DNA of 64,000 bases, from NCBI GenBank assembly GCA_027623205.1, contig JAQBYC010000001.1:121-64120 (forward strand), given 5' to 3'. Origin of the DNA: Pseudomonadota bacterium. Its GTDB lineage: Bacteria > Pseudomonadota > Alphaproteobacteria > GCA-2731375. The translations under genes and the position numbers were made by a program. Under the pieces are notes generated by a model. That model was not told the origin of the DNA. It did not search any database and worked only from the letters and a program-made list of their open reading frames with translations. Of this stretch, positions 893 to 43,154 are shown in pieces (position 1 is the first letter of the stretch; each line of letters begins with the position of its first letter).

Positions 893-894
893 AC

Positions 895-1506: not shown

Positions 1507-1509
1507 ACC

Positions 1510-1995: not shown

Positions 1996-2314
1996 GGCGG
2001 TTGCTTCTCATTATGAATGGGGCCGGCCCATTATAGCGCAAACAGCGAGCGCCAATCCAGACCTCGGGCGCCCACGCGCCCCGGGGGACCGGATCGCATG
2101 CCGCCGGCGCCGGCCTGTCGGCGGATGGCGGTGAGGGTCTGACGGCCGCATTTTTGCCATGAATGGCCACGGAATTGCCCAACGGCTCTCATGCGATGGC
2201 CATATTCAGCCGGCATTCTGGCACCCTGTCATGGCCGGTTGAGCCTTGCGCCCGATGCAAGGCGCTACGCCGCCGCCGTTGCCCGGGCCGGCAGCCCCTT
2301 ACGGAGACCACCCA

Positions 2315-3139
2315 ATGAAATATTTTCTCGCCGTGACCGCGATTGCCCTGCCTCTGGCATTTGCTTCAACCGGGGCAAATGCAGGCGAAAGGGGGGAAAC
2401 CCCGACCGCCTTCGTAGAGGCGGATTTGGCGCATTTCGCCTACGATGATGTTACGGGCTACCAGGCCGTGCGGGCGGCGCTCGATCCGTCCGCCAGGCAT
2501 TCCGGTCCGACACAGGGCGCCTACGAAGCGACCGAACGCGACAACTACGGCCACGCGTGGATCTATTTGGGCGCATTGCAGGATCACGATCCCCGCTCGC
2601 CGCACCAGCGGGCAAGCAAAAGGGCCTATGGGTGCTATCTGACCGCACGCCGCAATGCCATGGCAGCGGTTGCCTCGGAAGGCCGGGATGCGACGGGCGC
2701 CTGGCTCCAACTGGCGGACCGCTGCGCCGCCCGTCTGCGGCTTGGACTGGTGACATGGGCCCGGGCGAACGCTGTCCCGCTGGTGCCGGAGGATCTGCGG
2801 GGCGCCGCCCCCTACCGCATGTTTTTTCCCTTCGATACCGCCGCAATTACCCCGATCGGCGATCACATCCTGCGCTACATCGCCCGCTTTGAGAGGGCGG
2901 AGGGGGCGGCAAGGATCGTCGTTGCGGGCCACGCGGACCGCTCGGGCCGGGAAGACTACAATATGGCGCTGTCGAAACAGCGGGCGGACGCCGTGGACGC
3001 CAGGTTCGCGGGTTATATGGAGAACCATATCCCGCATCGCGTTTACGCGGCGGGAGAAACCACGCCGCTTGCCCTTACCCGCGACGGCGTTCGGCATCCC
3101 CGCAACCGGCGCGTGGAAATCATGCTCGGCCGGCTGTAA
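2315..3139 (+). CDS. OmpA-family (OmpA/MotB C-terminal domain) envelope protein with signal peptide
   Basis: ATG at 2315 preceded by GGAGA; signal peptide MKYFLAVTAIALPLAFA; C-terminal OmpA-like peptidoglycan-binding motif (AGHADRSG...NRRVEI). Confidence 0.7.
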   Translation: MKYFLAVTAIALPLAFASTGANAGERGETPTAFVEADLAHFAYDDVTGYQAVRAALDPSARHSGPTQGAYEATERDNYGHAWIYLGALQDHDPRSPHQRASKRAYGCYLTARRNAMAAVASEGRDATGAWLQLADRCAARLRLGLVTWARANAVPLVPEDLRGAAPYRMFFPFDTAAITPIGDHILRYIARFERAEGAARIVVAGHADRSGREDYNMALSKQRADAVDARFAGYMENHIPHRVYAAGETTPLALTRDGVRHPRNRRVEIMLGRL

Positions 3140-3236
3140 AGGTCTCTCGTTCCATATAATCTGTTTGACGGGCCAAATTGTCTGCAGTTTACGCCCTTTG
3201 CCATGGCGCGCCCTGGAACCAGCCGCCCGACCCTAT

Positions 3237-3325
3237 TTGCGGGGACACAATACTTATATCAGCGCATTCACGCCGTGAATTTAGAAATAGTAAAGCGGTA
3301 TAAGCATTGTGTCCCCGCAATTTTT
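3237..3325 (+). terminator. Long imperfect inverted repeat (about 26-bp arms) with a nested 7-bp palindrome in the loop and a T5 tract; likely Rho-independent terminator of the OmpA-like gene
   Basis: TTGCGGGGACACAATACTTATATCAGCGC ... GCGGTATAAGCATTGTGTCCCCGCAA followed by TTTTT; inner ATTCACGCCGTGAAT palindrome. Confidence 0.5.
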
Positions 3326-3388
3326 GGCGCCTTCGTGACAGGAAAGCGCCTGCGAATAGGGTCGACAGAATGCGCTGCCCCCGCGACC

Positions 3389-4033
3389 CTAAAAGCAATC
3401 TTCCGCGCTCGCAATTTTGACGGCGTTTGGGGCGCCGCCTTTGACCTCATCCCGCCAGAATCTAAATGCTACCCTTTCCGCAATGCGGGCATTGGAACTC
3501 GATTTCTCGTTGGCCACCAAATTCCTGAAACATGAATGATAGAACTCATGCACCAGCAGCGCCGCATAACAGGCGCGCCTGGTCGCGGAACTTGTGGAAA
3601 AGGTCTTATTGTTGGCCATGCGGTTCAGAAACATTGGGCATAACAATACCGACCCGCTAAGCGATAGGCCGAAACCATTATCGGCGCTATTGCAGATGAC
3701 AGTTTGTGCAGCCCAGTTTGCTTCCATCCCGGGCGCGGGCGTGGACTGGACGCAAATCGCCTCGCCATTGCCACCCTTATCGCCAACGCTGTCCCGCCCC
3801 TGAAAACGGCGGCGCATACAGCCTTTGATATTCTGGTCGAGCCGGTCCTCGAGCGCCTTTTCCAAGGTAGTCCAGCGCGCCTGAATCTGATTCGATACGG
3901 CTTCGATATCTTCGCGTTGCTGGGCATTGCAGGTTATCGCCGTAACCTGGGCGGAAGCCGCGAGCGGCAGCCCAACCAGAAACAGGAAAAAAACAACAAA
4001 TATTGAAAAGGGCCGAATGGACAATGGCTTCAT
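3389..4033 (-). CDS. Secreted cysteine-rich hypothetical protein with HExxH (zincin-like) motif
   Basis: ATG at 4033 (M6 of ORF) with GGAG upstream; signal peptide MKPLSIRPFSIFVVFFLFLVGLPLAASA; 8 Cys residues; LLVHEFYH motif; lies in a low-GC patch 3140-4176. Confidence 0.55.
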   Translation of the reverse strand: MKPLSIRPFSIFVVFFLFLVGLPLAASAQVTAITCNAQQREDIEAVSNQIQARWTTLEKALEDRLDQNIKGCMRRRFQGRDSVGDKGGNGEAICVQSTPAPGMEANWAAQTVICNSADNGFGLSLSGSVLLCPMFLNRMANNKTFSTSSATRRACYAALLVHEFYHSCFRNLVANEKSSSNARIAERVAFRFWRDEVKGGAPNAVKIASAEDCF

Positions 4034-4176
4034 CGGTTCCGACTCCAACGATGTTTATGGGGAGAATTATCATCCAAAAAAGTGCATGCTTCAAGGATTC
4101 CCAAGTATGCGCCATCGGAACCGTTTTCGCATTCCAGGGAGCGACGAGGCATCGGTGAAACGGGAGGACGGCAGTT

Positions 4177-5343
4177 ATGGCGGATATCATCATTATCGGC
4201 GGCAGCATCATGGGGTCGAGCATCGCCTACCATCTGGCGATGACCGCTCGGGCCGGCGACATTTGCGTGGTTGAGCCGGACCCGAGCTACGAGTGGGCGG
4301 CGGCGCCGCGGTCCTCGGGCGGGGTGCGGCTGATGCATGGCCTGCCCGAGAATATCGAAATGTCCCGCTACGGGCGCGAAGTCTACAAGGATTTTGCCCG
4401 TCTGATGGATGTCGACGGCCAGCCGGGCCGTTTTGATTTTCTCGAACAGGGCTATCTTTATTTGGTCGCCGGCGCCGCGGAGGTGGCGATTGCCGAGGAA
4501 AGCTGGCGCATCCAGACCGGCCTGGGCGTGCCCAATGACTTTCTGGACCGGGCCGGGCTCGGCGCGCGCTTCCCCTCGATGAACGTGGCGGATATCGATG
4601 CGGCGATCCACGCGCCCCAGGATGGCTTTATCGATCCCCACGCGGCGGTTCTGGGATTTCGGCGCAAGGCGATCAGCCTGGGGGTCGAATACATTCAGGA
4701 CAAGGTGGTCGATATCACGGTCAGCGGCGGCCTGGCCCGGCAGGTCGTGCTTGCCTCCGGCAAACGGCTGGCGGGCGACATCATCGTCAATGTCGCCGGG
4801 GCCTGGGGGCCGGAAATCTGCGCCATGGTCGGCATGACGGTGCCGGTGGAGCCATTGAGCCGCAATACCTTTTATTTCGAGATTCGCGGCGCCATCGAGA
4901 CCATGCCCCTGACCAAGGATCCCAGCGGCGTCGCTTTCCGCCAGGAAGGCGCCGGCTTCACGGTCGGGCAGACCGACACCGATGCGCCCTTCGGCTTCAA
5001 CTGGGAGGTCCGGCACGATTTGTTCGAGTCGCTGCTCTGGCCCGCCCTGGCGCACCGGGTGCCGGCGTTCGAAGCTTTGCAGGTCAAGCGGGGCTGGGCC
5101 GGGCACTACGCCTACAACCGGATGGACGGCAACACCATTATCGGCAAGTGGCTCGGCGGCCTGGACAATTTCTATGTGGCGACGGGTTTTTCCGGCGCGG
5201 GCCTGCAAAAAGGCCCGGCGATCGGCCGCGCGATGACCGAATTGCTGCTCGACGGCGGTTATCAGACCATCGATCTGTCGCGGATGTCGTATCGGCGGGT
5301 GCTCGACGACGAACCGCTGCTGGAAATCGGCTTCTCGGCCTGA
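4177..5343 (+). CDS. FAD-dependent oxidoreductase (DAO family; glycine/D-amino acid/sarcosine oxidase-like)
   Basis: N-terminal dinucleotide-binding motif IIIIGGSIMGSSIAYHL and a DAO-like fold over 388 aa. Confidence 0.75.
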   Translation: MADIIIIGGSIMGSSIAYHLAMTARAGDICVVEPDPSYEWAAAPRSSGGVRLMHGLPENIEMSRYGREVYKDFARLMDVDGQPGRFDFLEQGYLYLVAGAAEVAIAEESWRIQTGLGVPNDFLDRAGLGARFPSMNVADIDAAIHAPQDGFIDPHAAVLGFRRKAISLGVEYIQDKVVDITVSGGLARQVVLASGKRLAGDIIVNVAGAWGPEICAMVGMTVPVEPLSRNTFYFEIRGAIETMPLTKDPSGVAFRQEGAGFTVGQTDTDAPFGFNWEVRHDLFESLLWPALAHRVPAFEALQVKRGWAGHYAYNRMDGNTIIGKWLGGLDNFYVATGFSGAGLQKGPAIGRAMTELLLDGGYQTIDLSRMSYRRVLDDEPLLEIGFSA

Positions 5344-5367: not shown

Positions 5368-5470
5368 GAGCAATATTCAATTAACCGGCGTCGCTCTTGC
5401 GACTTAAGTAATTGGTTCAATTGCTCTATTCCTAAAGAGTCCGAGCATGCTTTAAGGCAACATGCGCTAG
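5368..5470 (+). repeat. Dispersed AT-rich MITE/REP-like element, copy A (full length, forward)
   Basis: GAGCAATATTCAATTAACC...GTCGCTCTTGCGAC hairpin...CTTAAGTAATTGGTTCAATTGCTCTATTC...GCATGCTTTAAGGCAACATGC hairpin...CTAG; the terminal CTA provides the stop codon of the minus-strand BVMO gene. Confidence 0.85.
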
Positions 5471-6954
5471 GAAACCAGGTCGTATTCTTCCAGATTTGGC
5501 GCGGCCATGTCCTCGCAGAAGCGGTCGAAGGTGAAGGGCCACATGGCCGGGTTGCCGTTCTTGTCCAGATACCAGCTTTGGCAGCCGGTCACCCAGACGG
5601 TGTCTTTCATGGCCTCTTTCAGGGCCGCGTTGAAGCGGTCCGTGGCGTCCTGCCGGGCGGAGATTTCCCTGGCCGCGCCGCTGCGCCAGCTCTCGATCAA
5701 CTGCATGATATAGCCCAACTGCCGCTCGGAAATATCGATCAGGGAAAAATTGCCGATGGGACTGTTGGGCCCCACCAGCATGAAAAAATTCGGGAAGCCG
5801 GGAATGGCGATGGAGCGATGGGCCTGGGTCGCCTCGGCCCAGACATCCTTTAAATCAACGCCGTCCTTGCCGATCAATGCCATGGGCCGCATGAAGCTGT
5901 GGCCGTCGAAGCCGGTGGCCAGGACCAGCACATCCAGTTCATGCAAACGGCCATCCCCGGTCCGCAGCCCGGCCGCCTCCACCCGTTCGATGGGCGCGGT
6001 GACCAGTTCGGCATTGGGCTGCTGGATCGCTTCGTAGAAGCCATCGGAAACGATCAGCCGTTTGCAGGCCGCCTGGTAATCCGGCGTCAACCGGGCCTTC
6101 AGCTCCGGGTCGCGCACGTTGTCTTCCAGGTTCGCCAGACAGGCGTCTTCCACCCGCTGCATCTGCGCCTTGTCGCCGATCACCGCCCGGCCGAAGGTAT
6201 CGGCGAACAGACGGGTCAGGGAGGCGTGCAGATCGTCCATGGCTTGCGGTTGGTGGCGGAAGACTTCCTTTTCCTGCTCGGAGAAGGCCGGGTTCTCCTG
6301 GGGAAAAATCCATTGTGCGGTGCGCTGGAACAACGACAGATGTTTCGCCCTGTGCACGATGTCGGCGGTAATCTGCACGGCGGTGGAGCCGGTGCCGACG
6401 ATGCCGATGCGTTTGCCGTCCAGGGGCGCCTCATGGTTCCAGCGGGCGCTGTGAAAGACCGCGCCGGCGAAATCGTCCAGGCCGGCGATGTCCGGGTAGA
6501 CCGGGTGATGCAGAACCCCGGTGGCCGAGATCACGATATCGACCACATCGATCTCCTCGCCGCCGATTTCGAGGTGCCATTTGCCGTCCCGGTAGGCCGC
6601 GCGGGTGATCTCGCTGTTGAAGCTGACGAAGCTTTCGACGTTGTATTGTTTCGCCACGCTTTCGAAATAAGCCTGAATTTCCGCGCCGGGGGAGAAACGA
6701 TGGCTCCATTCGGCGTTCGGTGCAAAGGAATAGCGGTACATGTGCGAGGGGACGTCGCAGCTCAGGCCCGGATAGGTATTCTCGCGCCAGGTGCCGCCCA
6801 GGCGGTCCGCCTTTTCATAGACGGTGAAATCCGTGATGCCGGCGGCCTGCAGCTTGATCGCCGTCAGGATGCCCGACATGCCGCCGCCGATCACCGCGAT
6901 CCTGGGCGACCGCCTGGTCGTGCGCCCGGCGTCTGAATTCAGTTGCTCGTTCAT
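5467..6954 (-). CDS. Type I Baeyer-Villiger / flavin-containing monooxygenase
   Basis: 495 aa with a GGGMSG FAD motif, the BVMO fingerprint [11 protein letters not shown] and a second Rossmann motif [11 protein letters not shown]. Confidence 0.8.
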
Positions 6955-7121
6955 CGTTCATCGTATCCCAAAATAACCCTGTCCGAACGCTGATGGTCTT
7001 CATAGCAATAATGTCGCGCCTGCGGCAAAAGCAAGGGCGCGGCAAAAAGCCACATCTGGCATCTATCAAGGGGGCCGAATGCGCTCTAAGTTTGATGCTG
7101 TTGTGGAATGAGGAGAGGACC

Positions 7122-8435
7122 ATGGCGAAATACCTGAAACAGGGTCTGGGCCAGGCCGAGGTGGACGAGGCCGACGCCAAGGTGCGGACCCAGGTGGAGA
7201 CTATTCTGGCCGATATCCAGGCGCGCGGCGACCTGGCGGTGCGGGAATTGTCGGAAAAGTTCGACGCCTGGAGCCCGGCAAGCTTCCGCCTGTCCGAAAC
7301 GGAGATCGAGGCGGCCATGTCAAAGGTCGCCAAGCGGGACCTGGACGATATCCGCTTCGCCCAGGAACAGGTGGGCAATTTCGCCCGCCATCAAAAGGCC
7401 GCCTTGCGGGACGTGGAGGTGGAAACCATGCCCGGCGTGGTGCTGGGGCACAAGAATATCCCGGTGAATTCCGTGGGCTGCTATGTGCCGGGGGGCAAAT
7501 ATCCCATGGTCGCCTCGGCCCACATGAGCGTGGTGACCGCCAAGGTGGCCGGCGTGCCCCGCATCGTCGCCTCCGCTCCGCCCCAGGGCGGCGCGCCACA
7601 CCCCGCCATTGTCGCGGCCATGCATATGGGCGGGGCCGACGAGATCCTGGTACTGGGCGGTATTCAGGCGGTCGCGGCGATGGCCCTGGGCACGGAAAGC
7701 GTCCAGGGCGTGGATATGCTGGTGGGGCCGGGCAACATGTTCGTGGCCGAGGCCAAGCGGCAGCTCTATGGCAGGGTTGGTATCGACCTGTTCGCCGGGC
7801 CAACGGAAACCCTGATCATCGCCGACGACAGCGTTGACGGCGAGCTGTGCGCCATCGATCTGCTGGGCCAGGCGGAGCATGGCCCGACCTCGCCGGCTGT
7901 GCTGTTGACCACCTCGGAAGCGCTGGCGCGGGATACCATGGCGGAAATCGAACGGCAGCTGGAGGTGCTGCCGACGGCGGAGATCGCGCGGCAATCCTGG
8001 GCCGACTACGGCGCCGTCATTCTGTGCGACAGCGAAGCGGAGATGTTGGCGGAAGCCAATCGCCTGGCCTTCGAACATGTCCAGGTAATGACCAGGGATC
8101 CGGCGTATTTTCTCGACAACATGACCAACTATGGCGCGCTGTTCCTGGGGCCGCGCACCAATGTATCCTATGGCGACAAGGTCATCGGCACCAACCACAC
8201 CCTGCCGACCAAGCGGGCCGGGCGCTATACTGGCGGCCTGTGGGTCGGCAAGTTCATCAAGACCCATACCTATCAACGGATCCTGACGGATGAGGCCTCC
8301 GCCCTGGTCGGGGAATACTGCTCCCGTCTATGCATGCTGGAGGGCTTCGCCGGCCATGCGGAACAGGCGAACGTGCGGGTGCGCCGCTATGGCGGGCGTA
8401 ACGTGCCGCCCTACACGGCGGTGGAGCCGGCCTGA
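7122..8435 (+). CDS. Histidinol dehydrogenase (HisD) family NAD-dependent dehydrogenase, probable catabolic paralog
   Basis: ATG at 7122 after AGGAGAGG; HisD signature blocks ([35 protein letters not shown]); 1-nt overlap with the next gene. Confidence 0.7.
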
Positions 8436-9364
8436 TGCCCGGGCATATCGGCATCGTCGGCGCCGGTCTGGTCGGCGCGGGCTGGACCATTGTTTTCGCC
8501 CGGGCCGGCGAACAGGTGCGGGTGTATGACGCCGCCGCCGCCATTCGCGACAACTTCATGGCGGTGGTCGGGCAACAGCTGGATGATTTGAAGCGTTACG
8601 ATCTGGTCGATGATCCGGCCGCCATTCTGGCCCGGATCCAGGTTTGCGATAACCTGGCGGCGGCGGTTCAGGGCGCGCGCTTCATCCAGGAATCCGTTCT
8701 GGAACAGGTGGCGGTCAAGCAGGAGATCTCGGCCGCCATTGGCCCGTTGCTGGGTGCGGGGGCCATCGTCGGCAGCTCAACCTCGGGCATTCCCGGTTCG
8801 GCCTTCACGGAAGGCGCGGCGAACCGGGAGCGTTTTCTGGTGACCCATCCGGTCAATCCGCCCTATCTGGTGCCGGTGGTCGAGGTGGTGCCCGCGCCCT
8901 GGACGGCGCAGGACGCGATGGACGGGGCCATGGCCCTGATGGCCGGGGTCGGCCAGTCGCCGGTGCTGGTGCGCCGGGAGATCGAGGGTTTCATCCTGAA
9001 CCGCCTGCAGGGCGTTCTGTTGCGCGAAGCCTGGGCCCTGTTCGAGGCGGGTTATGCCAGCACCGCCGATATCGACAAGACGGTGTCCGAGGGCCTGGGC
9101 CTGCGCTGGTCGTTCATGGGCCCGTTCGAAACCATCGATCTGAACGCGCCGGGCGGGGTCGCGGATTATGCCGAACGCCTGGGCCCGCTGTATCATGCGA
9201 TCCAGAAATCCCGCACCGATCCACAACCCTGGAGCGGTGACTTGATCGACCGGGTCGATGGCGAACGGCGGCGGGCCCTTGCCATGGACGATCTAGGGGC
9301 CCGGCGCAATTGGCGCGACCGCCGCCTGATGGCCCTGGCCGCCCACAAGGCCGGACAGGAATAA
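8435..9364 (+). CDS. 3-hydroxyacyl-CoA dehydrogenase family protein (L-carnitine dehydrogenase-like)
   Basis: N-terminal NAD-binding IGIVGAGLVGAGW; 3HCDH N- and C-terminal domain architecture over 309 aa. Confidence 0.7.
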   Translation: MPGHIGIVGAGLVGAGWTIVFARAGEQVRVYDAAAAIRDNFMAVVGQQLDDLKRYDLVDDPAAILARIQVCDNLAAAVQGARFIQESVLEQVAVKQEISAAIGPLLGAGAIVGSSTSGIPGSAFTEGAANRERFLVTHPVNPPYLVPVVEVVPAPWTAQDAMDGAMALMAGVGQSPVLVRREIEGFILNRLQGVLLREAWALFEAGYASTADIDKTVSEGLGLRWSFMGPFETIDLNAPGGVADYAERLGPLYHAIQKSRTDPQPWSGDLIDRVDGERRRALAMDDLGARRNWRDRRLMALAAHKAGQE

Positions 9365-9386
9365 AACGATTCACGGAGACGTCCCC

Positions 9387-10352
9387 ATGCCTGAACTCAC
9401 CACCACCGATCATCGGGTCGAAAGCAGCCAGCCGGATTTGAAACTTTTGGTCCGCAACAGGCGCCTCAAGGATCGGGATGCATTCTCGCCGGCGCAGACG
9501 GTGCTGTTCGTGCATGGCGCCACCTATCCCTCAACGGTGACCTTCGACTACGCCATGGCTGGCGGCTCCTGGATGGATATCATGGCCAGGGCCGGTTTTG
9601 ATGTCTGGTGCGTCGATCTGCCGGGCTATGGCGCCTCGGACCGGCCGCCGGAAATGTCGATGCCCGCGGACGACAATGCCCCCGTGGTCGATACCGCGCA
9701 TGCGGTGGCCGATGTCGCAAAGGCGGTCGATTTCATTCTGGGCCGAAGGAAGCTGCCGCGGCTGGCGCTGATCGGCTATTCCTGGGGCACCATGATATGC
9801 GGCGCCTACGCCGGCCGGCAGCCGGACAAGGTGGCGCGCCTGGTCCTCTATGGCGCGGCCTGGCTGGGCACTGGCCGATCGATCAGCACGGGCGCGCCGC
9901 CGGGCGCCTACCGTCTGGTCGAGGCCGAGGCGGTGGTCGCGCGCTGGTGCCTTGAACTGGATGCGGCGCAGATCGAAAGCCTCGCCGCGCCGGCGCACAT
10001 GGCCGCCTGGGCGGCTGCGGCCATTGCCTCGGACCCGGAGGCGGGCCGCCATGATCCGCCGCGGCTGCGGGCCCCCTGTGGGGTGGTCAAGGACGTGCTG
10101 GCAAACAATGCCAGCCAGACGCCGCCCTACGATCCCGCCGCCATTCGCGCCCCGACCATGATCGTGGTTGGGGAATGGGATCGCGAAACCAGGCCGAAAC
10201 AGGGCCGCGAGGTGTTCGCGCGGCTGTACAATACCGCCGAGCGGCGCTATGTCGTGATCGGGGGGGCCACCCACTCCATGCTATTGGAAAACCAACGCGG
10301 CGCGCTGCACCGTGTGGTCGATGGCTTCCTGTGGGAGGGCTGGGAACGATGA
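9387..10352 (+). CDS. Alpha/beta-fold hydrolase
   Basis: GYSWG nucleophile elbow and HG oxyanion motif (VLFVHGATY) in a 321-aa protein. Confidence 0.7.
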   Translation: MPELTTTDHRVESSQPDLKLLVRNRRLKDRDAFSPAQTVLFVHGATYPSTVTFDYAMAGGSWMDIMARAGFDVWCVDLPGYGASDRPPEMSMPADDNAPVVDTAHAVADVAKAVDFILGRRKLPRLALIGYSWGTMICGAYAGRQPDKVARLVLYGAAWLGTGRSISTGAPPGAYRLVEAEAVVARWCLELDAAQIESLAAPAHMAAWAAAAIASDPEAGRHDPPRLRAPCGVVKDVLANNASQTPPYDPAAIRAPTMIVVGEWDRETRPKQGREVFARLYNTAERRYVVIGGATHSMLLENQRGALHRVVDGFLWEGWER

Positions 10353-10990
10353 CCGGCGGCATCATTTTGTGGGGCGCCATTTCGCTGCGGGCCCTGCGGG
10401 TCCATTGGGCCCTGCAGGAGCTGGGCCTGCCCTACGCGTGCAGGCCGATCCAATCGCGTAGCGGGGAAACCCTGACGGCGGAATTTACCCGGCGGAATCC
10501 AAAGCAAAAGATTCCCTGTCTGCAGGACGGTGATTTCACCCTGACGGAAAGTCCGGCCATCGTGAATTATCTGTTCAACGCCCATGGCGCGGGGACGGAC
10601 GTGTTTTTGCCGGGAACCGCCGAAGAACAGGCCCGCTCCGATGAATGGAGCTATTTTGCCATGATGGAGCTGGATGCCCATTGTCTGTACCTGATCCGGC
10701 GCCACAAGTTTCTGTCCGAGATCTATGGGGAGGCGCCCGTGGCGGTGGCCTCGGCGGCGGAATATTGCCGGAAACAGATCGACGCCGTGGCCCCGGCCGT
10801 CGCCTTGGCCGATCCGTATCTTTTTGGCGACCGGATCGGGGCCGCCGATATCCTGTTGAGCAGCACCTTTGCGTTTGCCCAACGCTACGAGGTGGCGTTG
10901 CCGGAACCGTGCCAGGCCTATATGGAGCGTGCCTTGGCGCGGCCCGCCTACCAGGCTGCCAAGGCCAGAAACGAGGACCTGAATGCCTGA
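10349..10990 (+). CDS. Glutathione S-transferase family protein
   Basis: ATGA overlap with upstream gene; start MTGGIILWG; GST N- and C-terminal domain pattern; the annotated ORF start at 10175 was rejected in favour of the coupled internal ATG. Confidence 0.65.
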   Translation: MTGGIILWGAISLRALRVHWALQELGLPYACRPIQSRSGETLTAEFTRRNPKQKIPCLQDGDFTLTESPAIVNYLFNAHGAGTDVFLPGTAEEQARSDEWSYFAMMELDAHCLYLIRRHKFLSEIYGEAPVAVASAAEYCRKQIDAVAPAVALADPYLFGDRIGAADILLSSTFAFAQRYEVALPEPCQAYMERALARPAYQAAKARNEDLNA

Positions 10991-12323
10991 AAATGCCCGC
11001 GATAATCTGGAGGCGGCCCTGGGGGTCATCGGGCGCCATGATGCAGCCATCAAGGCCATGGTGACGGTGACCGCGGAACAGGCGCGGGACGCCGCCGATC
11101 TGGCCGACCAGGCGGCGCGGGAGGGGCGCTGGCTGGGCCTGTTGCACGGCATGACCATGGCCATCAAGGACAACATTCAGACCGCCGGGGTGCGCACCAC
11201 CTCCGGCTCGTTGCATTTCAAGGATGTGGTGCCGAACCAGGACGCTTTCGTGGTGCAGCGGTTGCGGGCGGCGGGCGCGGTGATTGTCGGCAAGGCCGCC
11301 ATGCACGAGTTGGCCTTCGGCATCAGATCCTACAATCCAGTGAGCGGACAGTGCCGCAATCCGTGGGATCAAAGCCGCATTCCCGGCGGCTCCTCGGGCG
11401 GGTCTGGCGCCGCCGTCGCCGCCGGCATGGCCCAGGCGGCGCTGGGCTCGGACACCGGCGGCTCGGTGCGTCTGCCCGCCGCCATGAACGGCATCGCCGG
11501 TCTGCGTCCCACCCATGGCCGGGTCCCCAACCACGGCTCGACCCCGGTCAGCGCCTCTTATGACACCATCGGCCCCATGGCCCGGCGGGTCGGTGATCTG
11601 GCCCGTATCCTGGCGGTCACCGCCCAGGGCGAGCCGGGCGCCGCGCCGACCGCCGCGCCGGACCTGGGCAATTTCCTGCCTACATTGAACGATGGCGTGG
11701 CCGGCCTGCGCCTTGGCCTGCCGCTGAACCACTATTTCCTGAATTGCGACGACGATATCGCCGAGGCCGTAATGACGGCGGTGCGGGCCCTGGAAGCACA
11801 GGGCGCGCGGATCGTCGAGGTTGATGTCGAAGGGGCCGAGACCACGCATCAATGGGCGACCATCCAAATCTATGCCGACGCCTGCGCCTTTCATGCCGAA
11901 CGCCTGGACCGCCATCCCGAGCTGTTCTCACCTGCCGTGCTGGAGCGCATGCTGGTCGGGCGCGGCTTTACGGCCGTGGACTACGCCAACGCCTGCCGGG
12001 CGCGCGAGACCTGGCAGCGCGGTCTTGCCCGCCTGTACCAGGATATTGATATCCTGATTTCACCGACCACGCCGGCGCCGCCGCCGCCGATCGCGGAAGA
12101 CAAAAGCCTGCTGGAGGCGACCAGGGATGCCTCGCGCAACACCTATGCGGGAGGCTTTGGCGCCAATCCCGGCCTGTCATTGCCCTGCGGCTTCGGCGGC
12201 GACGGCCTGCCCATCGGCCTGCAATTGGAAGCGGCCTGGTGGCGCGAGCCAATGTTGCTGCGGGCGGGCATGGCCTATCAGGCGGTGACCGATTGGCACC
12301 TGACCGAACCGCCGTTGCCGTAG
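10983..12323 (+). CDS. Amidase (amidase-signature family)
   Basis: AS-family signature GGSSGGSGAAVAAG...GSDTGGSVRLPA over 446 aa; 8-bp overlap with the upstream GST gene. Confidence 0.8.
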   Translation: MPENARDNLEAALGVIGRHDAAIKAMVTVTAEQARDAADLADQAAREGRWLGLLHGMTMAIKDNIQTAGVRTTSGSLHFKDVVPNQDAFVVQRLRAAGAVIVGKAAMHELAFGIRSYNPVSGQCRNPWDQSRIPGGSSGGSGAAVAAGMAQAALGSDTGGSVRLPAAMNGIAGLRPTHGRVPNHGSTPVSASYDTIGPMARRVGDLARILAVTAQGEPGAAPTAAPDLGNFLPTLNDGVAGLRLGLPLNHYFLNCDDDIAEAVMTAVRALEAQGARIVEVDVEGAETTHQWATIQIYADACAFHAERLDRHPELFSPAVLERMLVGRGFTAVDYANACRARETWQRGLARLYQDIDILISPTTPAPPPPIAEDKSLLEATRDASRNTYAGGFGANPGLSLPCGFGGDGLPIGLQLEAAWWREPMLLRAGMAYQAVTDWHLTEPPLP

Positions 12324-12408
12324 AGAAATTTTCAATTGGACTTAAGTAATTGGTTCAATTGCTCTATTCTTTAAAAGTCCGGGCATGTTTTAAGGTAACA
12401 TGCTCTAG
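12323..12408 (+). repeat. Dispersed MITE/REP-like element, copy B (short form lacking the GC hairpin module)
   Basis: GAGAAATTTTCAATTGGACTTAAGTAATTGGTTCAATTGCTCTATTC...GCATGTTTTAAGGTAACATGCTCTAG; its first bases overlap the amidase TAG stop. Confidence 0.85.
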
Positions 12409-12464
12409 ACTGATCCCGAAAATGCCCCAACGCCGATCATCAAAAGCAATAGAAAGCCATCGTC

Positions 12465-15400
12465 ATGAGTGTAAAGAAACTGCTGGTTGCCAATCGCGGC
12501 GAAATTGCCATTCGTATTCTGCGCGCCGCCGCCGATCTGGGGCTGGGCACCGTCGCGATCTATGCCCAGGACGAGGCCGCATCCCTGCATCTGAGCAAGG
12601 CGGACGAGGCGGTGGCATTATCGGGCAGGGGTGTCGCGGCCTATCTGGATGGCGCGGCCATCGTGGCCCTGGCCCAGGACAGGGGCTGTGACGCCATTCA
12701 TCCCGGCTATGGTTTTTTGAGCGAGAACGCCGAATTCGCCCAGGCCTGTGCCCAGGCCGGTATCGCCTTTGTCGGGCCGGGGCCTGAAACCCTGCACATG
12801 TTCGGCGACAAGGCGGCGGCCCGTGATCTGGCGGAGCGCAGCGGCGTACCCGTGCTGCCGGGCAGCCAGGGGGCAACGGACGTAGGGGCGGCGGAAGCTT
12901 TCTTCGCCGCCCATGGCGCCATGATGATCAAGGCCATGGCGGGCGGCGGCGGGCGCGGCCTGCGCGCCGTACATGCGGCGGACGAGATCGCCGGAACGCA
13001 CGCCCTGTGTCAGGCCGAGGCCTTGCAGGCGTTCGGCAATGGCGATGTCTTTGTCGAGCGTCTGTTGGCGCGGCCCCGCCATATTGAAGTTCAGATCATC
13101 GGCGACGGCAGCGGCGCCATCAGTCATCTGGGCGAGCGGGAATGCTCTATCCAGCGCCGCCATCAAAAGCTGGTGGAGATGGCGCCGGCGCCCGGACTGG
13201 CGCCGGCGCTGCGCGACAAGCTGACCCAGGCCGCCGTCACCCTGGCCGAGGCGGTGGATTACCGCAATGTCGGGACCTTCGAATTCCTGGTCGACGGCGA
13301 TGCGTTCTATTTCATCGAGGCGAACCCGCGCCTGCAGGTCGAACATACGGTGACCGAAGAAGTCTGGGGCATTGATCTGGTGCAGAGCCAGCTGCGGCTG
13401 GCCGGCGGCGCCAGTCTGGCCGAACTGGGTTTGCTGCAGGCAGATGTGGGGCCGCCGCGGGGCCAGGCCATGCAGGTGCGCATCAACATGGAAACCATTG
13501 CGGCCGATGGCAGCGTGCGGCCCACGGGCGGTGTGCTGCAGACGTTCGAGATGCCCTCGGGGCCGGGCATTCGTATCGACAGCTTCGGCTATGCCGGCTA
13601 TCGCACTTCGCCCAGCTATGACTCCCTGCTGGCCAAGCTGATCGCCCACTCTCCGGGGCGTGATTTCGCGGCCCTGGCCCAGAAAACCTACCGCGCTTTG
13701 TGTGAATGCCAGATAACCGGTTTTGCGAGTAATATTTCCTTCCTGCAAAATTTGCTGCGCCATCCGGAATTCCGGGCCGGGCGTCTGCATACACAGTTCA
13801 TTGCCGCCCACCTGGACGAACTGGTCAATGGCAGCGGACACCAGCGGCGGTTCTTCGAGGGGGCGGGCGATGATCTGGTGGATGCGCAACGGCTTGGCGT
13901 CAAGTTGGATGCCAACGATCCCCTGGCCGTGCTGGCCCATGGCAGGTCCCAGGCCGTTCAAGCGGCGACGACCCCCGCCAATGGCATGAGCGGACCGGAC
14001 GGCACCGTTGCCATCGCCGCCCCCATGCAGGGCACCATCGTCAGCATAGACGTGGCGGTGGGTGACGAGGTCTATCCGGGCCGGCAGGTGCTGATCATGG
14101 AAGCCATGAAGATGCAGCACGTGATCGCGGCCCAGGTCAGCGGCGTGGTGCGCCAGCTGCCCGTGGCGCCGGGCGACACGGTGTTTGAAGGCCATGCCCT
14201 GGCGTTCGTCGCCGAGCGGGAGGTGGCGGTGCCCGAAACGGGCGAGGTGGTTGCCGTCGATCTGGATGATCTGCGCCCGGATCTGGCGGAAGTGATGGCG
14301 CGCCAGGGCATGACCCTGGATGACCGGCGGCCGCATGCCGTGGCCCGCCGGCGCAAGACCAATCAGCGCACGGCGCGGGAGAATGTCTACGATTTGTGTG
14401 ATCCGGATTCCTTTACTGAATTCGGCTCGCTGGTGGTGGCGGCCCGGCGGCAGATGCACAGCATGGCTGAATTGATCGAGCGCACGCCGGCCGATGGCCT
14501 GATCGCCGGTCTGGGCCGGATCAACGGCCACCTGTTTCCGGACGAAATCGCCCGCTGTGTAGTGATGTCCTATGACTACACGGTGCTGGCCGGAACCCAG
14601 GGCAAGAACAACCACAAAAAGAAGGACCGGATGTTCGAGATGGCCGCGAAGTGGCGTCTGCCGGTGGTCTTCTTCACCGAGGGCGGCGGCGGCCGGCCCG
14701 GCGACACGGACATGATTTTCTCGGCCAATCTGCACGTTCCCGCCTTCCACCTGTTTGGCCGCCTGAGCGGTCTGGTGCCCCTGGTGGGCATTACCTCGGG
14801 CCGCTGTTTTGCCGGTAACGCTGTGCTGCTGGGCTGTTGCGATGTGGTCATCGCGACACGGAACTCCACCATCGGCATGGGCGGCCCGGCGATGATCGAA
14901 GGCGGCGGCCTGGGGGTTTTCCGGCCCGAGGAAGTGGGGCCGATGTCGGTGCAGGTGCCCAACGGCGTGGTTGATATCGCGGTCGAGGACGAGGGGGAAG
15001 CGGTTCAGGTGGCGCAGCGATATCTGGGCTACTTCCAGGGCGCGGTAGCGGCTTGGGACTGCGCCGATCAGCGGCTGTTGCGCCAGGCCATACCCGAGGA
15101 CCGCCTGCGTATCTATGATGTCCGCAAGGTGGTGGAGACCATGGCCGACACCGGCTCGGTGCTGGAGTTGCGCGCCGGTTTCGGCCTTGGCATGGTCACC
15201 GCCCTGGCGCGGATCGAAGGCCGGCCCGTGGGTATTGTCGCCAACAACCCGAAGCATCTGGCCGGCGCCATCGACAGCGATGGCGCGGACAAGGCGGCCC
15301 GCTTCATGCAGCTTTGCGACGCCTATGACATTCCCCTGGTTTTCCTGTGCGACACGCCGGGCAACATGGTCGGGCCGGTGGCGGAACAGACCGCCCTGGT

Positions 15401-15827
15401 CCGCCATTGCTGCCGTCTTTACGTGATCGGCGCCAACGTTACCGTGCCGACCTTCACCATCGTGCTGCGCAAGGGCTATGGCCTGGGCGCCCAGGGCATG
15501 GCGGGGGGCGGATTTCACGCCCCGTTCTTCACCATTTCCTGGCCCACGGGGGAATTCGGCGGCATGGGCCTCGAAGGCGCGGTCAAACTGGGCCGCCGGG
15601 ACGAACTGGCCGCGATCGAGGATCCGGTGGAACGCATGGCCCGTTACGAGGAAATGGTCGCCGCCATGTACGCCCAGGGCAAGGCGATCAACACCGCCTC
15701 GCTGTTCGAACTGGACAATGTCATCGACCCCGCCGATACCCGCGACTGGATCATGGCCGGCCTGCGCGCCACGCCGCCCGCCCCGGCGCGCGAAGGCAAG
15801 AAACGCCCGTGGATCGATGCCTGGTGA
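12465..15827 (+). CDS. Single-chain multidomain acyl-CoA carboxylase (biotin carboxylase - BCCP - carboxyltransferase; LCC-like)
   Basis: 1120 aa with an N-terminal biotin carboxylase/ATP-grasp domain (KLLVANRGEIAIRILRA), a central biotinyl domain with EAMKMQH, and a C-terminal carboxyltransferase (propionyl-CoA carboxylase beta-like) domain. Confidence 0.8.
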   Translation: MSVKKLLVANRGEIAIRILRAAADLGLGTVAIYAQDEAASLHLSKADEAVALSGRGVAAYLDGAAIVALAQDRGCDAIHPGYGFLSENAEFAQACAQAGIAFVGPGPETLHMFGDKAAARDLAERSGVPVLPGSQGATDVGAAEAFFAAHGAMMIKAMAGGGGRGLRAVHAADEIAGTHALCQAEALQAFGNGDVFVERLLARPRHIEVQIIGDGSGAISHLGERECSIQRRHQKLVEMAPAPGLAPALRDKLTQAAVTLAEAVDYRNVGTFEFLVDGDAFYFIEANPRLQVEHTVTEEVWGIDLVQSQLRLAGGASLAELGLLQADVGPPRGQAMQVRINMETIAADGSVRPTGGVLQTFEMPSGPGIRIDSFGYAGYRTSPSYDSLLAKLIAHSPGRDFAALAQKTYRALCECQITGFASNISFLQNLLRHPEFRAGRLHTQFIAAHLDELVNGSGHQRRFFEGAGDDLVDAQRLGVKLDANDPLAVLAHGRSQAVQAATTPANGMSGPDGTVAIAAPMQGTIVSIDVAVGDEVYPGRQVLIMEAMKMQHVIAAQVSGVVRQLPVAPGDTVFEGHALAFVAEREVAVPETGEVVAVDLDDLRPDLAEVMARQGMTLDDRRPHAVARRRKTNQRTARENVYDLCDPDSFTEFGSLVVAARRQMHSMAELIERTPADGLIAGLGRINGHLFPDEIARCVVMSYDYTVLAGTQGKNNHKKKDRMFEMAAKWRLPVVFFTEGGGGRPGDTDMIFSANLHVPAFHLFGRLSGLVPLVGITSGRCFAGNAVLLGCCDVVIATRNSTIGMGGPAMIEGGGLGVFRPEEVGPMSVQVPNGVVDIAVEDEGEAVQVAQRYLGYFQGAVAAWDCADQRLLRQAIPEDRLRIYDVRKVVETMADTGSVLELRAGFGLGMVTALARIEGRPVGIVANNPKHLAGAIDSDGADKAARFMQLCDAYDIPLVFLCDTPGNMVGPVAEQTALVRHCCRLYVIGANVTVPTFTIVLRKGYGLGAQGMAGGGFHAPFFTISWPTGEFGGMGLEGAVKLGRRDELAAIEDPVERMARYEEMVAAMYAQGKAINTASLFELDNVIDPADTRDWIMAGLRATPPAPAREGKKRPWIDAW

Positions 15828-15887
15828 GGGCCAGATCAGCGGCCCCGCCATCGTGAGCAAAACCCATCCAAGAATAGGTGGACGACA

Positions 15888-16289
15888 ATGCCCAAAAAAG
15901 CCCTGAGACTTGGCAAACCCTTTGAGGATACGGTCCTCTTTTCGTTTGGCGTGGTCGCATCCGGACGCTTTCTGCACACGGCCGGGATCACCGCCCGCGA
16001 CCGCGATGGCGCGGTCGTCGGCGCGGACGACATGGCCGCTCAGGTGCGGCAATGTTTCAACAACCTCGAGGATATTCTCACCGCGGCCGGCGCCGATTTC
16101 AGTCAGGTGGTGAAATACATGATCTACACCACGGACATCGAAAGATACGACCAGGACACCCGCGACGTGCGCGCGCGCTATTTCGTTGACCGCCCGGCCT
16201 GCACGTTGGTCGAAGTTTCCAGGCTGATACACCCGGACATGCTGGTCGAGATCGAGGCCATCGTGAATCTTGCGGACGAGCCGGACTAG
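15888..16289 (+). CDS. RidA/YjgF/TdcF family reactive-intermediate deaminase
   Basis: 133 aa with the typical RidA family pattern (ARYFVD...PACTLVEVSRL). Confidence 0.75.
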   Translation: MPKKALRLGKPFEDTVLFSFGVVASGRFLHTAGITARDRDGAVVGADDMAAQVRQCFNNLEDILTAAGADFSQVVKYMIYTTDIERYDQDTRDVRARYFVDRPACTLVEVSRLIHPDMLVEIEAIVNLADEPD

Positions 16290-18436: not shown

Positions 18437-18562
18437 GATTAACTGAAAATTTCTCAGGAGCATGTTTCCTTGTGGCATGCCCGGACTCTTTAAGAATAGA
18501 GCAATTGAACCAATTACTTAAGTCGCGAGAGCGACTTCGATTAATTGAAAATTGCTCTAAAT
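18437..18562 (-). repeat. Dispersed MITE/REP-like element, copy C (full length, reverse orientation, with an extra terminal TIR-like module)
   Basis: Reverse complement reads GAGCAATTTTCAATTAATCGAAGTCGCTCTCGCGACTTAAGTAATTGGTTCAATTGCTCTATTC...GCATGCCACAAGGAAACATGC...GAGAAATTTTCAGTTAATCGG; overlaps the stop codon of the 18557 minus-strand gene. Confidence 0.85.
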
Positions 18563-19720
18563 GTAGAGATCCTGAAGGTTGTAATCCTTGACCAGGGATT
18601 GACGGGTTTGTTCATTCCAGCGGTTTTCCACTTCCCGTCCTGCGAGCGGCTGATAGCAATAACGCGGTTCATCGGGAAATCGCTGTTGCCGCGCGTCGGC
18701 CGCGATCGCAATCATGCGGCATCGTTCGTCTATGCGGTCAGCGTCATAGGTCTCGACCGTGCCGTCCAACTTGCTGGTGGTGACGTTCAGAACCCGCCGG
18801 CGCGGAAAAAACCCGGCATTCAGCGTGATGCGGCGGTCCGGCGAAGAATTGGCGAACGAGCCGTGTACCAGTTGCCGATTCGTGATGAACACATCGCCCG
18901 CGCCGCACAGCATGGGCACCGCGCCGTCCAAACGTTCGGAGCCGCTTTGCGCCTTCAATAGGCGAATATCCACCTTGCCCAGCTTGTGACTGCCGGGCAA
19001 TACCCAGACGCAGTTTCCAGCGGTACTGGGGTAAAGCTGCGCCATGAAATTGAAACCATGCGCGCCTTCATCCCAATCCGCCGCCTGCCAATGGGTCGTC
19101 CCGTCCTGATGCCAGGCGACCGACGGCCCGAGGCCCGGTTCCTTGACAAAGGTGACCTCGTTATAGGGCACGAAATCGGCGCCATTGACGGCCTCGGCCA
19201 CCGCCAGCAGTCCCGGGTGACCATAAAGCCGCAGACAGGACGGCATCAGTTGCAGATTGCCCAATAGCAATTCGATGGTCCAATCCGGCGACCCATCGGA
19301 TGGCGTCGGGTCGAGCATCTTGACCGGGTGCCGGCCCTTGTTTTTTGTCGTGCCGCCCACAGGGTCGCTCAAGGGTTTCGCCCAGCGAAACGATGGCCGG
19401 GCGAACCCAGGATCCTTGACCGGGTCGCCGTGCCTGTTCCGGCCGCCGTCCGGCGCCACGGGCGCGCCGGCAAGGACCCGTTCCACATCGGCGCGAAGCT
19501 CCGCCAGCTCTGCTGCCGCAATGACATTCTCGAAAACATAGAAACCGTGTTGCCAGTAAGCCTCCAGGATGCCGCGATCAAGCTTGCCGTCGTCGGCAAA
19601 CCCGATCGGTCCACGATTGCCCAGGACATGGGCCCGTTTTTCGCCTTCGCGGCTATATGTCGCCATAACCCGGGCATGTTCGGCAGCGGAAATTGTGCCG
19701 GTCGTTCGCGGATCACTCAT
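18557..19720 (-). CDS. Phytanoyl-CoA dioxygenase (PhyH) family Fe(II)/2OG dioxygenase, long form
   Basis: ATG at 19720 (MSDPRTTG) with GGAAG upstream; WHQDG HxD motif and a second His in HGF; 387 aa. Confidence 0.7.
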   Translation of the reverse strand: MSDPRTTGTISAAEHARVMATYSREGEKRAHVLGNRGPIGFADDGKLDRGILEAYWQHGFYVFENVIAAAELAELRADVERVLAGAPVAPDGGRNRHGDPVKDPGFARPSFRWAKPLSDPVGGTTKNKGRHPVKMLDPTPSDGSPDWTIELLLGNLQLMPSCLRLYGHPGLLAVAEAVNGADFVPYNEVTFVKEPGLGPSVAWHQDGTTHWQAADWDEGAHGFNFMAQLYPSTAGNCVWVLPGSHKLGKVDIRLLKAQSGSERLDGAVPMLCGAGDVFITNRQLVHGSFANSSPDRRITLNAGFFPRRRVLNVTTSKLDGTVETYDADRIDERCRMIAIAADARQQRFPDEPRYCYQPLAGREVENRWNEQTRQSLVKDYNLQDLYI

Positions 19721-19764
19721 AATGCTTCCATTGTCCTGGTTGGATAAACGGTTCATTCCGGCCG

Positions 19765-20145
19765 TCAGCGCCGCGGTGCGCCATAAAGATACCGGGTGTT
19801 CACTTCGGTTTCGTTGCCGTCGGGATCCATCATAAAGAGTGCCCGGCCCACGCCCCGCTCGCCGTAAGGCCCGCGTGTGAAATATCGGCTGCCCGCGAAT
19901 TTTGTCAGGATCTCATCGAAGCCATCTTCCGTCACGGTCATGGCGAAGTGAAGCGGCCCGCCGCCCTGGTGGCGACCGGTGTGGTTTTCCATCTGCAGAA
20001 CGATATGGCCGCGCTCGCTTTGCAGATAGGTCCGTTCCCCATCCTGCTTGTCCAGCGGGATACCGAGCATACCGTGATAGAATTCGATCGCCGTTTCCAT
20101 GTCCTTTACCTTGAGGAAGATTTCTTCGATCCCGATGATCCCCAT
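19765..20145 (-). CDS. VOC (glyoxalase/bleomycin-resistance/dioxygenase) family protein
   Basis: Start MGIIGIEEIFLKV; beta-alpha-beta-beta-beta VOC pattern over about 126 aa. Confidence 0.6.
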   Translation of the reverse strand: MGIIGIEEIFLKVKDMETAIEFYHGMLGIPLDKQDGERTYLQSERGHIVLQMENHTGRHQGGGPLHFAMTVTEDGFDEILTKFAGSRYFTRGPYGERGVGRALFMMDPDGNETEVNTRYLYGAPRR

Positions 20146-20270
20146 GCCGCACGCTCCCTCTTGTTGCCGGTGTTCGAACGAACCTGTTGGCCATGCTACA
20201 CCGCTCCAGGGCGGTCTGGCCATGGGGGCCACCTGGTTGGCGCCGGCCCTGCCTGTCGGCGGGAAAAGGC

Positions 20271-21860: not shown

Positions 21861-21874
21861 GTCCCGACCTGATC

Positions 21875-28639: not shown

Positions 28640-28720
28640 GAGCAATTTTCAATTAACCGGTGTCCCGGACGCGACTTAAGTAATTGGTTCAATTTCTCTA
28701 CTTCTGCATCACCATGCCCG
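28640..28720 (+). repeat. Dispersed MITE/REP-like element, copy D (left half plus core; right hairpin degenerate)
   Basis: GAGCAATTTTCAATTAACCGGTGTCCCGGACGCGACTTAAGTAATTGGTTCAATTTCTCTACTTC; in the arsR upstream region. Confidence 0.8.
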
Positions 28721-28873
28721 AAGGTCTGATCCGAGAAACTTGCCGTAAGATTAGCAGCCATGTCGGCTCATTTCCGAAATGTGTCAAAAATCGACATGCG
28801 GGCGCCTTTTCAGGTTTTGGCGGGCATTGCCGGCTGGCCGGGTAATTTCAATCAGATTAAGAATGGGCGAAGG

Positions 28874-43113: not shown

Positions 43114-43154
43114 GACGCCGAAACAGGACTAATACGCCTTGAAATCACAGATGT

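Follow-up and report, generated by a model that had tools for sequence, protein, structure and literature searches.

A conserved mosaic operon ending in an LCC-type carboxylase in an uncultured marine alphaproteobacterial lineage

Layout and conservation of the operon

We analyzed a 64,000-nucleotide stretch of DNA from a Pseudomonadota bacterium of the class Alphaproteobacteria (assembly GCA_027623205.1, contig JAQBYC010000001.1), referred to here as the window, and focused on a run of forward-strand genes that begins with a HisD/HpsN-family dehydrogenase and includes a single-chain carboxylase of the LCC type. Seven open reading frames (ORFs), A to G, make up this run; their coordinates and strand are as given in an earlier sequence-only reading, and their Pfam matches are strong. 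Gene A (7122-8435) encodes the HisD/HpsN-family dehydrogenase (PF00815 Histidinol_dh, 3.8e-137). It is followed by B (8435-9364), of the lambda-crystallin/L-gulonate 3-dehydrogenase type (Pfam 3HCDH_N, 4.5e-42, and 3HCDH); C (9387-10352), a divergent alpha/beta-fold serine hydrolase with a GYSWG nucleophile motif (Abhydrolase_1, 3e-23); D (10349-10990), a GST-fold protein (GST_N, 3.7e-17, and GST_C); E (10983-12323), an amidase-signature (Ser-cisSer-Lys) amidase (PF01425 Amidase, 1.3e-103); and F (12465-15827), the LCC-type biotin-dependent acyl-CoA carboxylase. A Rid-family gene, G (15888-16289; PF01042 Ribonuc_L-PSP, 6.9e-25), comes last. On the reverse strand, divergent from A, lies a gene for a type I Baeyer-Villiger monooxygenase (BVMO; g07, 5467-6954; FMO-like and Pyr_redox_3 domains), which the sequence-only reading had left out and which proved to be a member of the conserved unit. 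The G+C content at third codon positions is 0.76-0.83 in the called frames.

Read directly, the A/B junction is TGATG (1-nt overlap), the C/D junction is ATGA (4-nt overlap), and D and E overlap by 8 nt, while B and C are separated by a 22-nt spacer bearing GGAG. The claim that all genes from 7122 to 12323 overlap by 1 to 8 bp therefore holds for three junctions and fails for B/C. The gaps between E and F and between F and G are 141 and 60 nt in the window. A Shine-Dalgarno sequence, GAGGAG, precedes the ATG of A at 7122, and the 167-nt region between the BVMO gene and A (6955-7121) is presumed to be the promoter region. A consensus scan of this region found no sigma-70-like site, and the region had no Rfam match; a promoter and terminator scan gave no promoter-like site and about as many terminator-like matches as expected from shuffled sequence. 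A riboswitch or RNA leader for the operon was rejected: Rfam on the 64-kb window gave only a tRNA, at 53420-53492 (+).

Protein A was scanned against one genome per GTDB species, which gave 80 loci, and all proteins of the window were then compared with these loci by tblastn. The complete arrangement was confined to the eight closest species (L001 to L008). Near-identical proteins came from Alphaproteobacteria and Rhodospirillaceae metagenome-assembled genomes (MAGs), from Tara Oceans and from other seawater assemblies. The conserved order, found in seven related marine MAG species, is the BVMO gene on the reverse strand, then A, C, D, E, and F, with B and a short-chain dehydrogenase/reductase (SDR) gene as variable members between A and C. 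Identities to the window are 91-97% for A and 71-91% for the other proteins. The BVMO gene keeps its divergent position in L001 and L003 to L008 (76-89% identity), and in the same species F follows E (79-90% identity) with a gap of only 34-68 bp; the L002 contig ends inside the cluster, before the E-F junction. The genes 3' of F differ in every relative. Since the order and the short E-F gaps are kept while the downstream flank varies, F is the terminal gene of a conserved operon. The sequence-only reading had named as fatal to itself a carboxylase that never co-occurs with the upstream operon; the two co-occur in all seven of the complete related MAG species. Its description of one tightly packed catabolic-type operon also agrees with the overlaps and with the order kept in relatives. 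Taken together, the data show co-oriented, closely spaced genes in an operon that several species of a single uncultured marine alphaproteobacterial (Rhodospirillaceae-like) lineage share, and the region is very probably one conserved operon of mosaic origin that ends in the LCC-type gene.

The variable members differ even among close relatives. L001 and L002 lack B, and C directly follows A; B is present in L003 to L008. An SDR gene lies between B and C in L005 (12264-12998) and between B and D in L008 (5114-5689), where no C match was found. On a further metagenomic contig (L094, MPLY02040341.1), a 505-aa fusion of an SDR and the C-type hydrolase lies between B and D (2116-3633). The SDRs of these three loci share 51-54% identity with the SDR commonly found after genes of the A type in other bacteria.

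The operon flanks (2246-5343 and 15888-16289) are remodelled in this genome. Between YajQ and the BVMO gene, the relatives have a PaiB-like gene; in its place the window has an OmpA-like gene, a hypothetical gene (3389-4048, reverse strand), an FAD-dependent oxidoreductase gene (4177-5343), and a copy of a repeat. Neither these three genes nor G had a homologue in L001 to L008 by tblastn. The G+C content is 0.64-0.67 over 8000-16000, which holds the operon, versus 0.58-0.62 in much of the remaining window. Despite the raised G+C, the upstream synteny kept among relatives (GST, YajQ, and BVMO genes) argues against a recent island, and the term "island" used for the region in the earlier reading was an overstatement.

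The repeat between E and F (12322-12405), which had already been noticed, is one of six copies in the window; the others are at about 5372-5470(+), 18455-18555(-), 28650-28740(+), 35600-35700(+), and 43035-43130(+), and the E-F copy is on the forward strand. In the remodelled surroundings of the operon, two of the junctions bear a copy. The family is about 100 nt long and intergenic and forms nested hairpins around the core AATTGGTTCAATTGCTCTATTC, with an RNA minimum free energy of -31.5 kcal/mol (z -2.6). A 22-mer of the core occurs six times in the window versus zero times expected from shuffles. The E-F copy bears a 17-nt internal deletion, and its insertion accounts for the 141-bp E-F gap in the window. 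The repeat had no Rfam match. Because the core was not found in any of 101 loci examined, the closest relatives included, the repeat looks like a genome-specific element of the miniature inverted-repeat transposable element (MITE) or repetitive extragenic palindromic (REP) kind. A role as a regulatory element of the operon was rejected for the repeat, since none of the relatives has it.

The last ORF, G, bears on a pathway that had been suggested for the locus: breakdown of an amino-alcohol or betaine-like compound, with enamine or imine intermediates quenched by a RidA deaminase. A Rid-family ORF does follow F, HisD-family enzymes accept 2-amino alcohols (PMC12814064), and B is distantly related to carnitine dehydrogenases (166-175 bits, under the model cut-offs). 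However, G scores 59.1 bits against the TIGR00004 RidA model, which has a cut-off of 106.25, and its PAC (Cys) aligns with the PAR of PH0854 and YabJ, i.e., with RidA Arg105. Imine hydrolysis requires Arg105, and the Rid4-7 groups, which are not deaminases, are defined by the lack of this residue (PMC4433059). G also had no tblastn match in any of the eight relatives at E<=1e-3, the FAD oxidoreductase at 4177-5343 is likewise window-specific, and the conserved unit has no pyridoxal phosphate enzyme, amine oxidase, carnitine-pathway BKACE, or CoA-transferase. With Arg105 missing, the score below the cut-off, and no conservation, the reasoning toward enamine or imine intermediates loses its basis. 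G is best regarded as a window-specific neighbor and not as a pathway member, and we consider such a pathway very improbable, to the point of being essentially excluded.

Gene A and a sister clade of HpsN

Against HpsN structures A scored 371 bits, and against HisD structures 254. Its identity is 46% to CpHpsN and 46-48% to the two characterized HpsNs, which share 55% with each other, versus about 36% to HisD. A discriminating loop has the sequence G-S-A-P-L in HisD; in HpsN it is G-R-Y-A/S-H, and its last residue, His126, binds the sulfonate (PMC11382572). In A the loop reads G-K-Y-P-M, so that His126 of HpsN is replaced by Met and the HisD motif is not matched either. The A-clade loops examined fit [KR]-[YF]-P-[MLI], except for two that read A-Y-P-M and three without a pattern match. 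A and its clade keep QAEH (catalytic Glu318/His319) and GDK (Asp352 and the sulfonate-contacting Lys353); following the catalytic Asp, HisD has Tyr but A has Lys, like HpsN.

These features bear directly on whether A is simply the organism's HisD, acting in histidine biosynthesis. A exceeds the cut-off of the TIGR00069 hisD model (equivalog_domain; 445 versus 244), and its database name at NCBI is histidinol dehydrogenase. However, it is nearer to HpsN by more than 100 bits, GKYPM replaces GSAPL, Lys replaces Tyr after the catalytic Asp, and the 64-kb window contains no his genes and no second PF00815 gene. Moreover, many cultured bacteria, which presumably have a chromosomal hisD, carry A-clade genes on plasmids, next to LacI, SDR, and transporter genes. 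We regard a plain HisD as effectively excluded, in agreement with the earlier view of A as a HisD paralog closest to HpsN. Since a protein that is not HisD exceeds the TIGR00069 cut-off, that model does not separate these paralogs.

The clade is both tight and widespread. Orthologues of A were found in 80 genomes at 71-97% identity, with members in Alpha-, Beta-, and Gammaproteobacteria that share about 48% with the two characterized HpsNs and about 36% with HisD. A plasmid collection held 128 A-clade records at 60-80% identity, followed by a gap to <=49% among the matches listed; among these, the gap lies between 62% and 49%. The plasmid hosts include Mesorhizobium, Sinorhizobium, Klebsiella, Delftia, Novosphingobium, Hymenobacter, Geobacillus, and Priestia, and the genes, where annotated, are called hisD or putative histidinol dehydrogenase. 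The clade is thus plasmid-borne in cultured bacteria of three phyla, Bacillota and Bacteroidota included; examples are Klebsiella michiganensis (L103), Novosphingobium aromaticivorans pNL2 (L104), Geobacillus subterraneus (L102, 11 kb), and Priestia megaterium (L105). A typical plasmid module consists of a LacI gene beside a run of hisD-like, SDR, (MFS), alpha/beta-hydrolase, aldolase, and cupin genes, and modules of A, SDR, hydrolase, and cupin genes were found on the Klebsiella and Novosphingobium plasmids.

In the 80 loci, the commonest neighbor of the A-clade gene was an SDR gene immediately 3' of it (44 loci), and B-type genes lay beside it in 13 loci of other lineages. Further neighbors were LacI regulators, sugar-type or NMT1/SsuA-type binding proteins, and cyclase-family, SnoaL, cupin, MBL, and alpha/beta-hydrolase genes, and TauD-family genes lay beside some members. 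In a Hyphomicrobiales MAG (L027), a second PF00815 paralog, 46% identical to A, is located at 804-1994 (-), about 8 kb from the A-clade gene. Vitamin B6 (pyridoxine) degradation, suggested by the SDR, MBL, and 3HCDH neighbors of A in Rhizobiales, was rejected: the MBL neighbor scored 29 bits against 4-pyridoxolactonase versus 134 bits against the glyoxalase-II-like structure 8X78, and B scored 151 against a cut-off of 500 with the 5-formyl-3-hydroxy-2-methylpyridine-4-carboxylate (FHMPC) dehydrogenase model. A search of the literature available to us found nothing on the A-clade or on structure 8X78.

By its motifs and scores, A is neither HisD nor a demonstrable HpsN but a member of an uncharacterized, tight, and widespread sister clade of HpsN. 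It is presumably a Zn/NAD four-electron oxidizer that converts a 2-substituted primary alcohol to the acid. A sulfonated alcohol, such as those abundant in seawater, is one candidate substrate, with A as a variant HpsN acting as a 2,3-dihydroxypropane-1-sulfonate (DHPS) or cysteinolate type of dehydrogenase and the SDR as HpsO; the sequence-only reading had likewise proposed a sulfo-alcohol. A is closer to the characterized HpsNs than to HisD, it keeps the Arg/Lys-Tyr of the HpsN motif together with Lys353, its JGI name is sulfopropanediol 3-dehydrogenase, an SDR is its commonest neighbor, as HpsO is for HpsN (PMC11382572), and SsuA/NMT1-type binding proteins and TauD-family genes lie beside some members. 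However, essentially all A-clade members examined have Met or Leu in place of His126, which sets HpsN apart from HisD and forms a hydrogen bond to the sulfonate (PMC11382572). Neither the commonest neighbor families (about 40 loci; clusters of 80 loci) nor the window cluster included SuyAB, Xsc, a CuyA-type (PALP) sulfolyase, or an MDR HpsP-type protein. The clade is also tight across classes (72-97% identity) and clearly apart from HpsN, as the plasmid gap illustrates. These data weaken the sulfo-alcohol proposal, and organosulfonate catabolism seems to us improbable.

The assignment matters for annotation. NCBI gives members of the A-clade the name histidinol dehydrogenase, and KEGG-based pipelines call them sulfopropanediol dehydrogenase. 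Tara Oceans surveys used 167 bits as the threshold for hpsN (PMC11131964). Since A-clade proteins score about 350-370 bits against CpHpsN, they are probably counted as hpsN in such surveys, which could inflate estimates of DHPS-degrading potential. The occurrence of the clade in cultured, genetically tractable bacteria offers hosts for finding its substrate.

The carboxylase, the monooxygenase, and the remaining enzymes

The domain order of F is that of a single-chain carboxylase. Pfam places Biotin_carb_N, CPSase_L_D2, and Biotin_carb_C at aa 3-447, Biotin_lipoyl at 517-580, and Carboxyl_trans at 630-1103, corresponding to biotin carboxylase (BC), biotin carboxyl carrier protein (BCCP), and carboxyltransferase (CT) subregions at about 12471-13805, 14013-14204, and 14352-15773. 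The biotin attachment motif, EAMKMQH, is inside the Biotin_lipoyl domain. F matched the solved LCC of M. avium (PDB 4RCN) over its full length in two stretches (E=0, 1090 bits), and PDB entries 5FIF and 5H80 matched its two halves. Its architecture, its biotin motif, and its homology to 4RCN from end to end place F in the LCC family, as had been recognized from its single-chain BC-BCCP-CT order. Among 1.84 billion cluster representatives (50% identity), a search at E<=1e-30 gave about 50 full-length proteins of this type (>=1000 aa) at 40-61% identity among the best 150 of 9424 matches; the architecture is uncommon but not unique. Known LCC reportedly prefers long-chain acyl-CoA and forms a homohexameric holoenzyme.

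We examined the contexts of LCC homologues elsewhere (48-57% identity). An AMP-binding acyl-CoA ligase gene lay beside the homologue in five of seven annotated contexts, from Tistrella, Deinococcus radiodurans, Pseudosulfitobacter, Acuticoccus, and Paracoccus; four of these are directly adjacent and the fifth is within the same upstream gene run. The Haematobacter homologue has a CoA-transferase gene nearby, and that of Pseudomonas aeruginosa stands alone with a LysR regulator. None of the seven has an amidase, GST, or hydrolase partner beside it. The pairing with ligases suggests that F carboxylates the CoA ester of an acid that such a ligase would activate, and the recurring LCC-ligase pair could guide substrate discovery for the family. 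At plasmid loci of LCC homologues (L081, L084, L095, L096, and L097), the ligase pair is often accompanied by a TetR regulator and a carboxylate-type transporter (TRAP or Liv-type ABC). In the window itself, a reverse-strand run at 18557-23512, 2-7 kb 3' of F, encodes a PhyH-family dioxygenase, a VOC/glyoxalase protein, and two AMP-binding ligases. One of these ligases (21875-23512, reverse strand) is 35% identical to the ligase beside the LCC homologue of Tistrella. In relatives this run is not kept in synteny.

The best solved relatives of the BVMO are the cyclohexanone (CHMO), phenylacetone (PAMO), and steroid (STMO) monooxygenases and OTEMO, at 203-224 bits. Both Rossmann motifs are present (GGGMSG and GTGSTA), and the protein fits the FxGxxxHxxxW fingerprint, with N as the next residue, where P or D is usual.

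B scored 426 bits against NCBIfam PRK06129 (cut-off, 347) and aligned over its full length with the lambda-crystallin PDB 3ADO (202 bits), versus about 80 bits for HADH. It most likely oxidizes a 3-hydroxyl of a free acid. The sequence-only reading had called it a 3-hydroxyacyl-CoA or carnitine dehydrogenase; its similarity points instead to the lambda-crystallin/L-gulonate 3-dehydrogenase type, and the gene is dispensable, two close relatives being without it.

The triad of C (Ser132, Asp265, and His296) is invariant in 35 homologues. C has no sequence relative in the PDB at 1e-5 and no NCBIfam relative. In a Foldseek search with its AlphaFold model (pLDDT 93), all matches, with TM scores of about 0.6-0.68, were to generic esterases, thioesterases, and C-C hydrolases, which gives no substrate clue. 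The best NCBIfam match of D was maiA, at 71 bits versus a cut-off of 171, and its structure matches were uncharacterized GST structures only. E covers PF01425 over the full length and carries the motifs GGSSGGS and GGSSGGSGAAVAAG...GSDTGGSVR. It reaches no NCBIfam equivalog cut-off (IaaH-like, 341 versus 532; AtzE, 303 versus 461) and is also below the cut-off for allophanate hydrolase. An assignment of C, D, and E as deformylase, isomerase, and amidase of the nicotinate type was unsupported: there was no NicD- or NicF-type match, and maiA fell short as above.

Homologues of C elsewhere (55-66% identity) are solitary or in unrelated clusters; one locus (L093) has a C and GST pair after a Dpp transporter, but that GST is unrelated to D. 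Homologues of E elsewhere (57-70% identity) adjoin MFS transporter, CoA-transferase, or thioesterase genes. On plasmids of the collection searched, homologues of C, E, and F reached at most 43%, 43%, and 57% identity and never occurred together. By its composition, the operon is a mosaic of two modules whose combination is specific to this lineage. The first comprises A with the accessory secondary-alcohol dehydrogenases (B and the SDR) and is widespread in Proteobacteria; the second comprises C, D, E, and F, which were found together only in this lineage.

Such a mosaic might also be a set of neighbors rather than one pathway, with the LCC, and perhaps A and B, functionally independent and their adjacency a historical accident. 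The contexts outside the lineage are consistent with this: the LCC occurs with AMP-binding ligases, C alone or in other settings, E with MFS and CoA-transferase genes, and A with SDR and LacI genes. The operon has no CoA-activating enzyme, B and the SDR are variably present, and the hairpin repeat separates E from F in the window. Against it, the same-strand order and the short E-F gaps are kept in seven species at 71-90% identity while the downstream flank is not, the start and stop codons overlap at C/D and D/E, and the repeat is absent from the relatives. We consider accidental adjacency unlikely, though less so than organosulfonate catabolism.

A possible pathway and comparison with known systems

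Our preferred explanation is a conserved mosaic operon that serves a Baeyer-Villiger and ester- and amide-cleaving scheme with carboxylation of a CoA ester, and we assign it as a whole a probability of about 0.45. The chemical scheme taken by itself is tentative and more doubtful than the operon. In it, the BVMO would insert oxygen next to the ketone of a polar metabolite, and C would open the resulting ester or lactone. If a beta-substituted ketone underwent Baeyer-Villiger oxidation and the product were hydrolyzed, a 2-substituted primary alcohol would result, the kind of substrate that HisD-type enzymes use, and A could oxidize this freed alcohol to the acid, with B or the SDR oxidizing neighboring hydroxyls. 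E would cleave an amide bond, releasing a carboxylic acid or an amine, and D might isomerize an intermediate or carry out thiol chemistry on it. A ligase encoded elsewhere would activate the carboxylic acid to its CoA ester, which F would carboxylate for entry into central metabolism.

Several points weigh against this explanation. The conserved unit has no transporter, CoA ligase, or CoA-transferase gene, and the step feeding F is unaccounted for. Genes of the A-clade are usually found in sugar-type or LacI-regulated contexts without a BVMO, so that the link among the BVMO, C, and A is lineage-specific and purely inferential. C is without an informative relative, and D is without an assignable class. 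The gain and loss of B and the SDR among close relatives would be odd for obligatory steps, and co-transcription of the operon is presumed.

LCC-type carboxylases have solved structures, but their physiological role is not agreed upon, and an operon with amidase, GST, and hydrolase genes is a concrete, testable context for one. It is possible, if doubtful, that this operon gives an LCC-type carboxylase its first defined physiological context and that A represents a new substrate class of the HisD/HpsN family. If so, an acyl-CoA would be carboxylated after Baeyer-Villiger oxidation and ester or amide cleavage of an abundant marine metabolite, and the A-clade would be a class that genome annotation and ocean surveys now mistake for hisD or hpsN. 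The proteins of the operon all belong to known fold families, of which they are ordinary members; it is the combination that was not seen elsewhere. At present the finding is a lead and not a discovery.

The cyclohexanone (ChnBCDE) and methyl-ketone (MekAB) pathways are established cases in which a BVMO works together with an alpha/beta-hydrolase and with alcohol and aldehyde oxidation. By analogy with ChnB-ChnC-ChnD-ChnE and MekA-MekB, the present operon may combine a type I BVMO beside an alpha/beta-fold hydrolase with an alcohol-to-acid oxidation function. It differs in that one HisD-type enzyme would carry out both the alcohol and the aldehyde steps, in the addition of a GST, an amidase, and a carboxylase, and in its hydrolase, as C is not orthologous to ChnC or MekB.

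With HpsN (CpHpsN, PDB 8V35; RpHpsN, 8WWE), A shares the PF00815 fold family, the catalytic QAEH, the GDK motif, the Arg/Lys-Tyr of the specificity loop, and a frequent SDR neighbor. It differs in the clade motif, G-[KR]-Y-P-[ML] versus G-R-Y-[AS]-H, in which His126 is lost, and in belonging to a separate tight group, for which no hpsP or sulfolyase context was seen. B is homologous over its full length to lambda-crystallin/L-gulonate 3-dehydrogenase (3ADO), a family that oxidizes free acids and not CoA esters. It differs from L-carnitine dehydrogenase in scoring below the cut-offs of those models and in being encoded by a gene that close relatives can lack.

The urea amidolyase and guanidine carboxylase systems also place a biotin-dependent carboxylase gene next to an amidase-signature gene. 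However, their carboxylases have a KipA/KipI-type domain and act on urea or guanidine, whereas F has a crotonase-fold Carboxyl_trans domain, and E is below both the allophanate hydrolase and the AtzE cut-offs. The closest counterpart of F is the solved LCC (4RCN), with which it shares a single chain of about 1100 aa, the BC-BCCP-CT order, the AMKM biotin site, and end-to-end homology. The two differ in sequence, being about 50% identical, and in setting, as F ends an operon with amidase, GST, and hydrolase genes.

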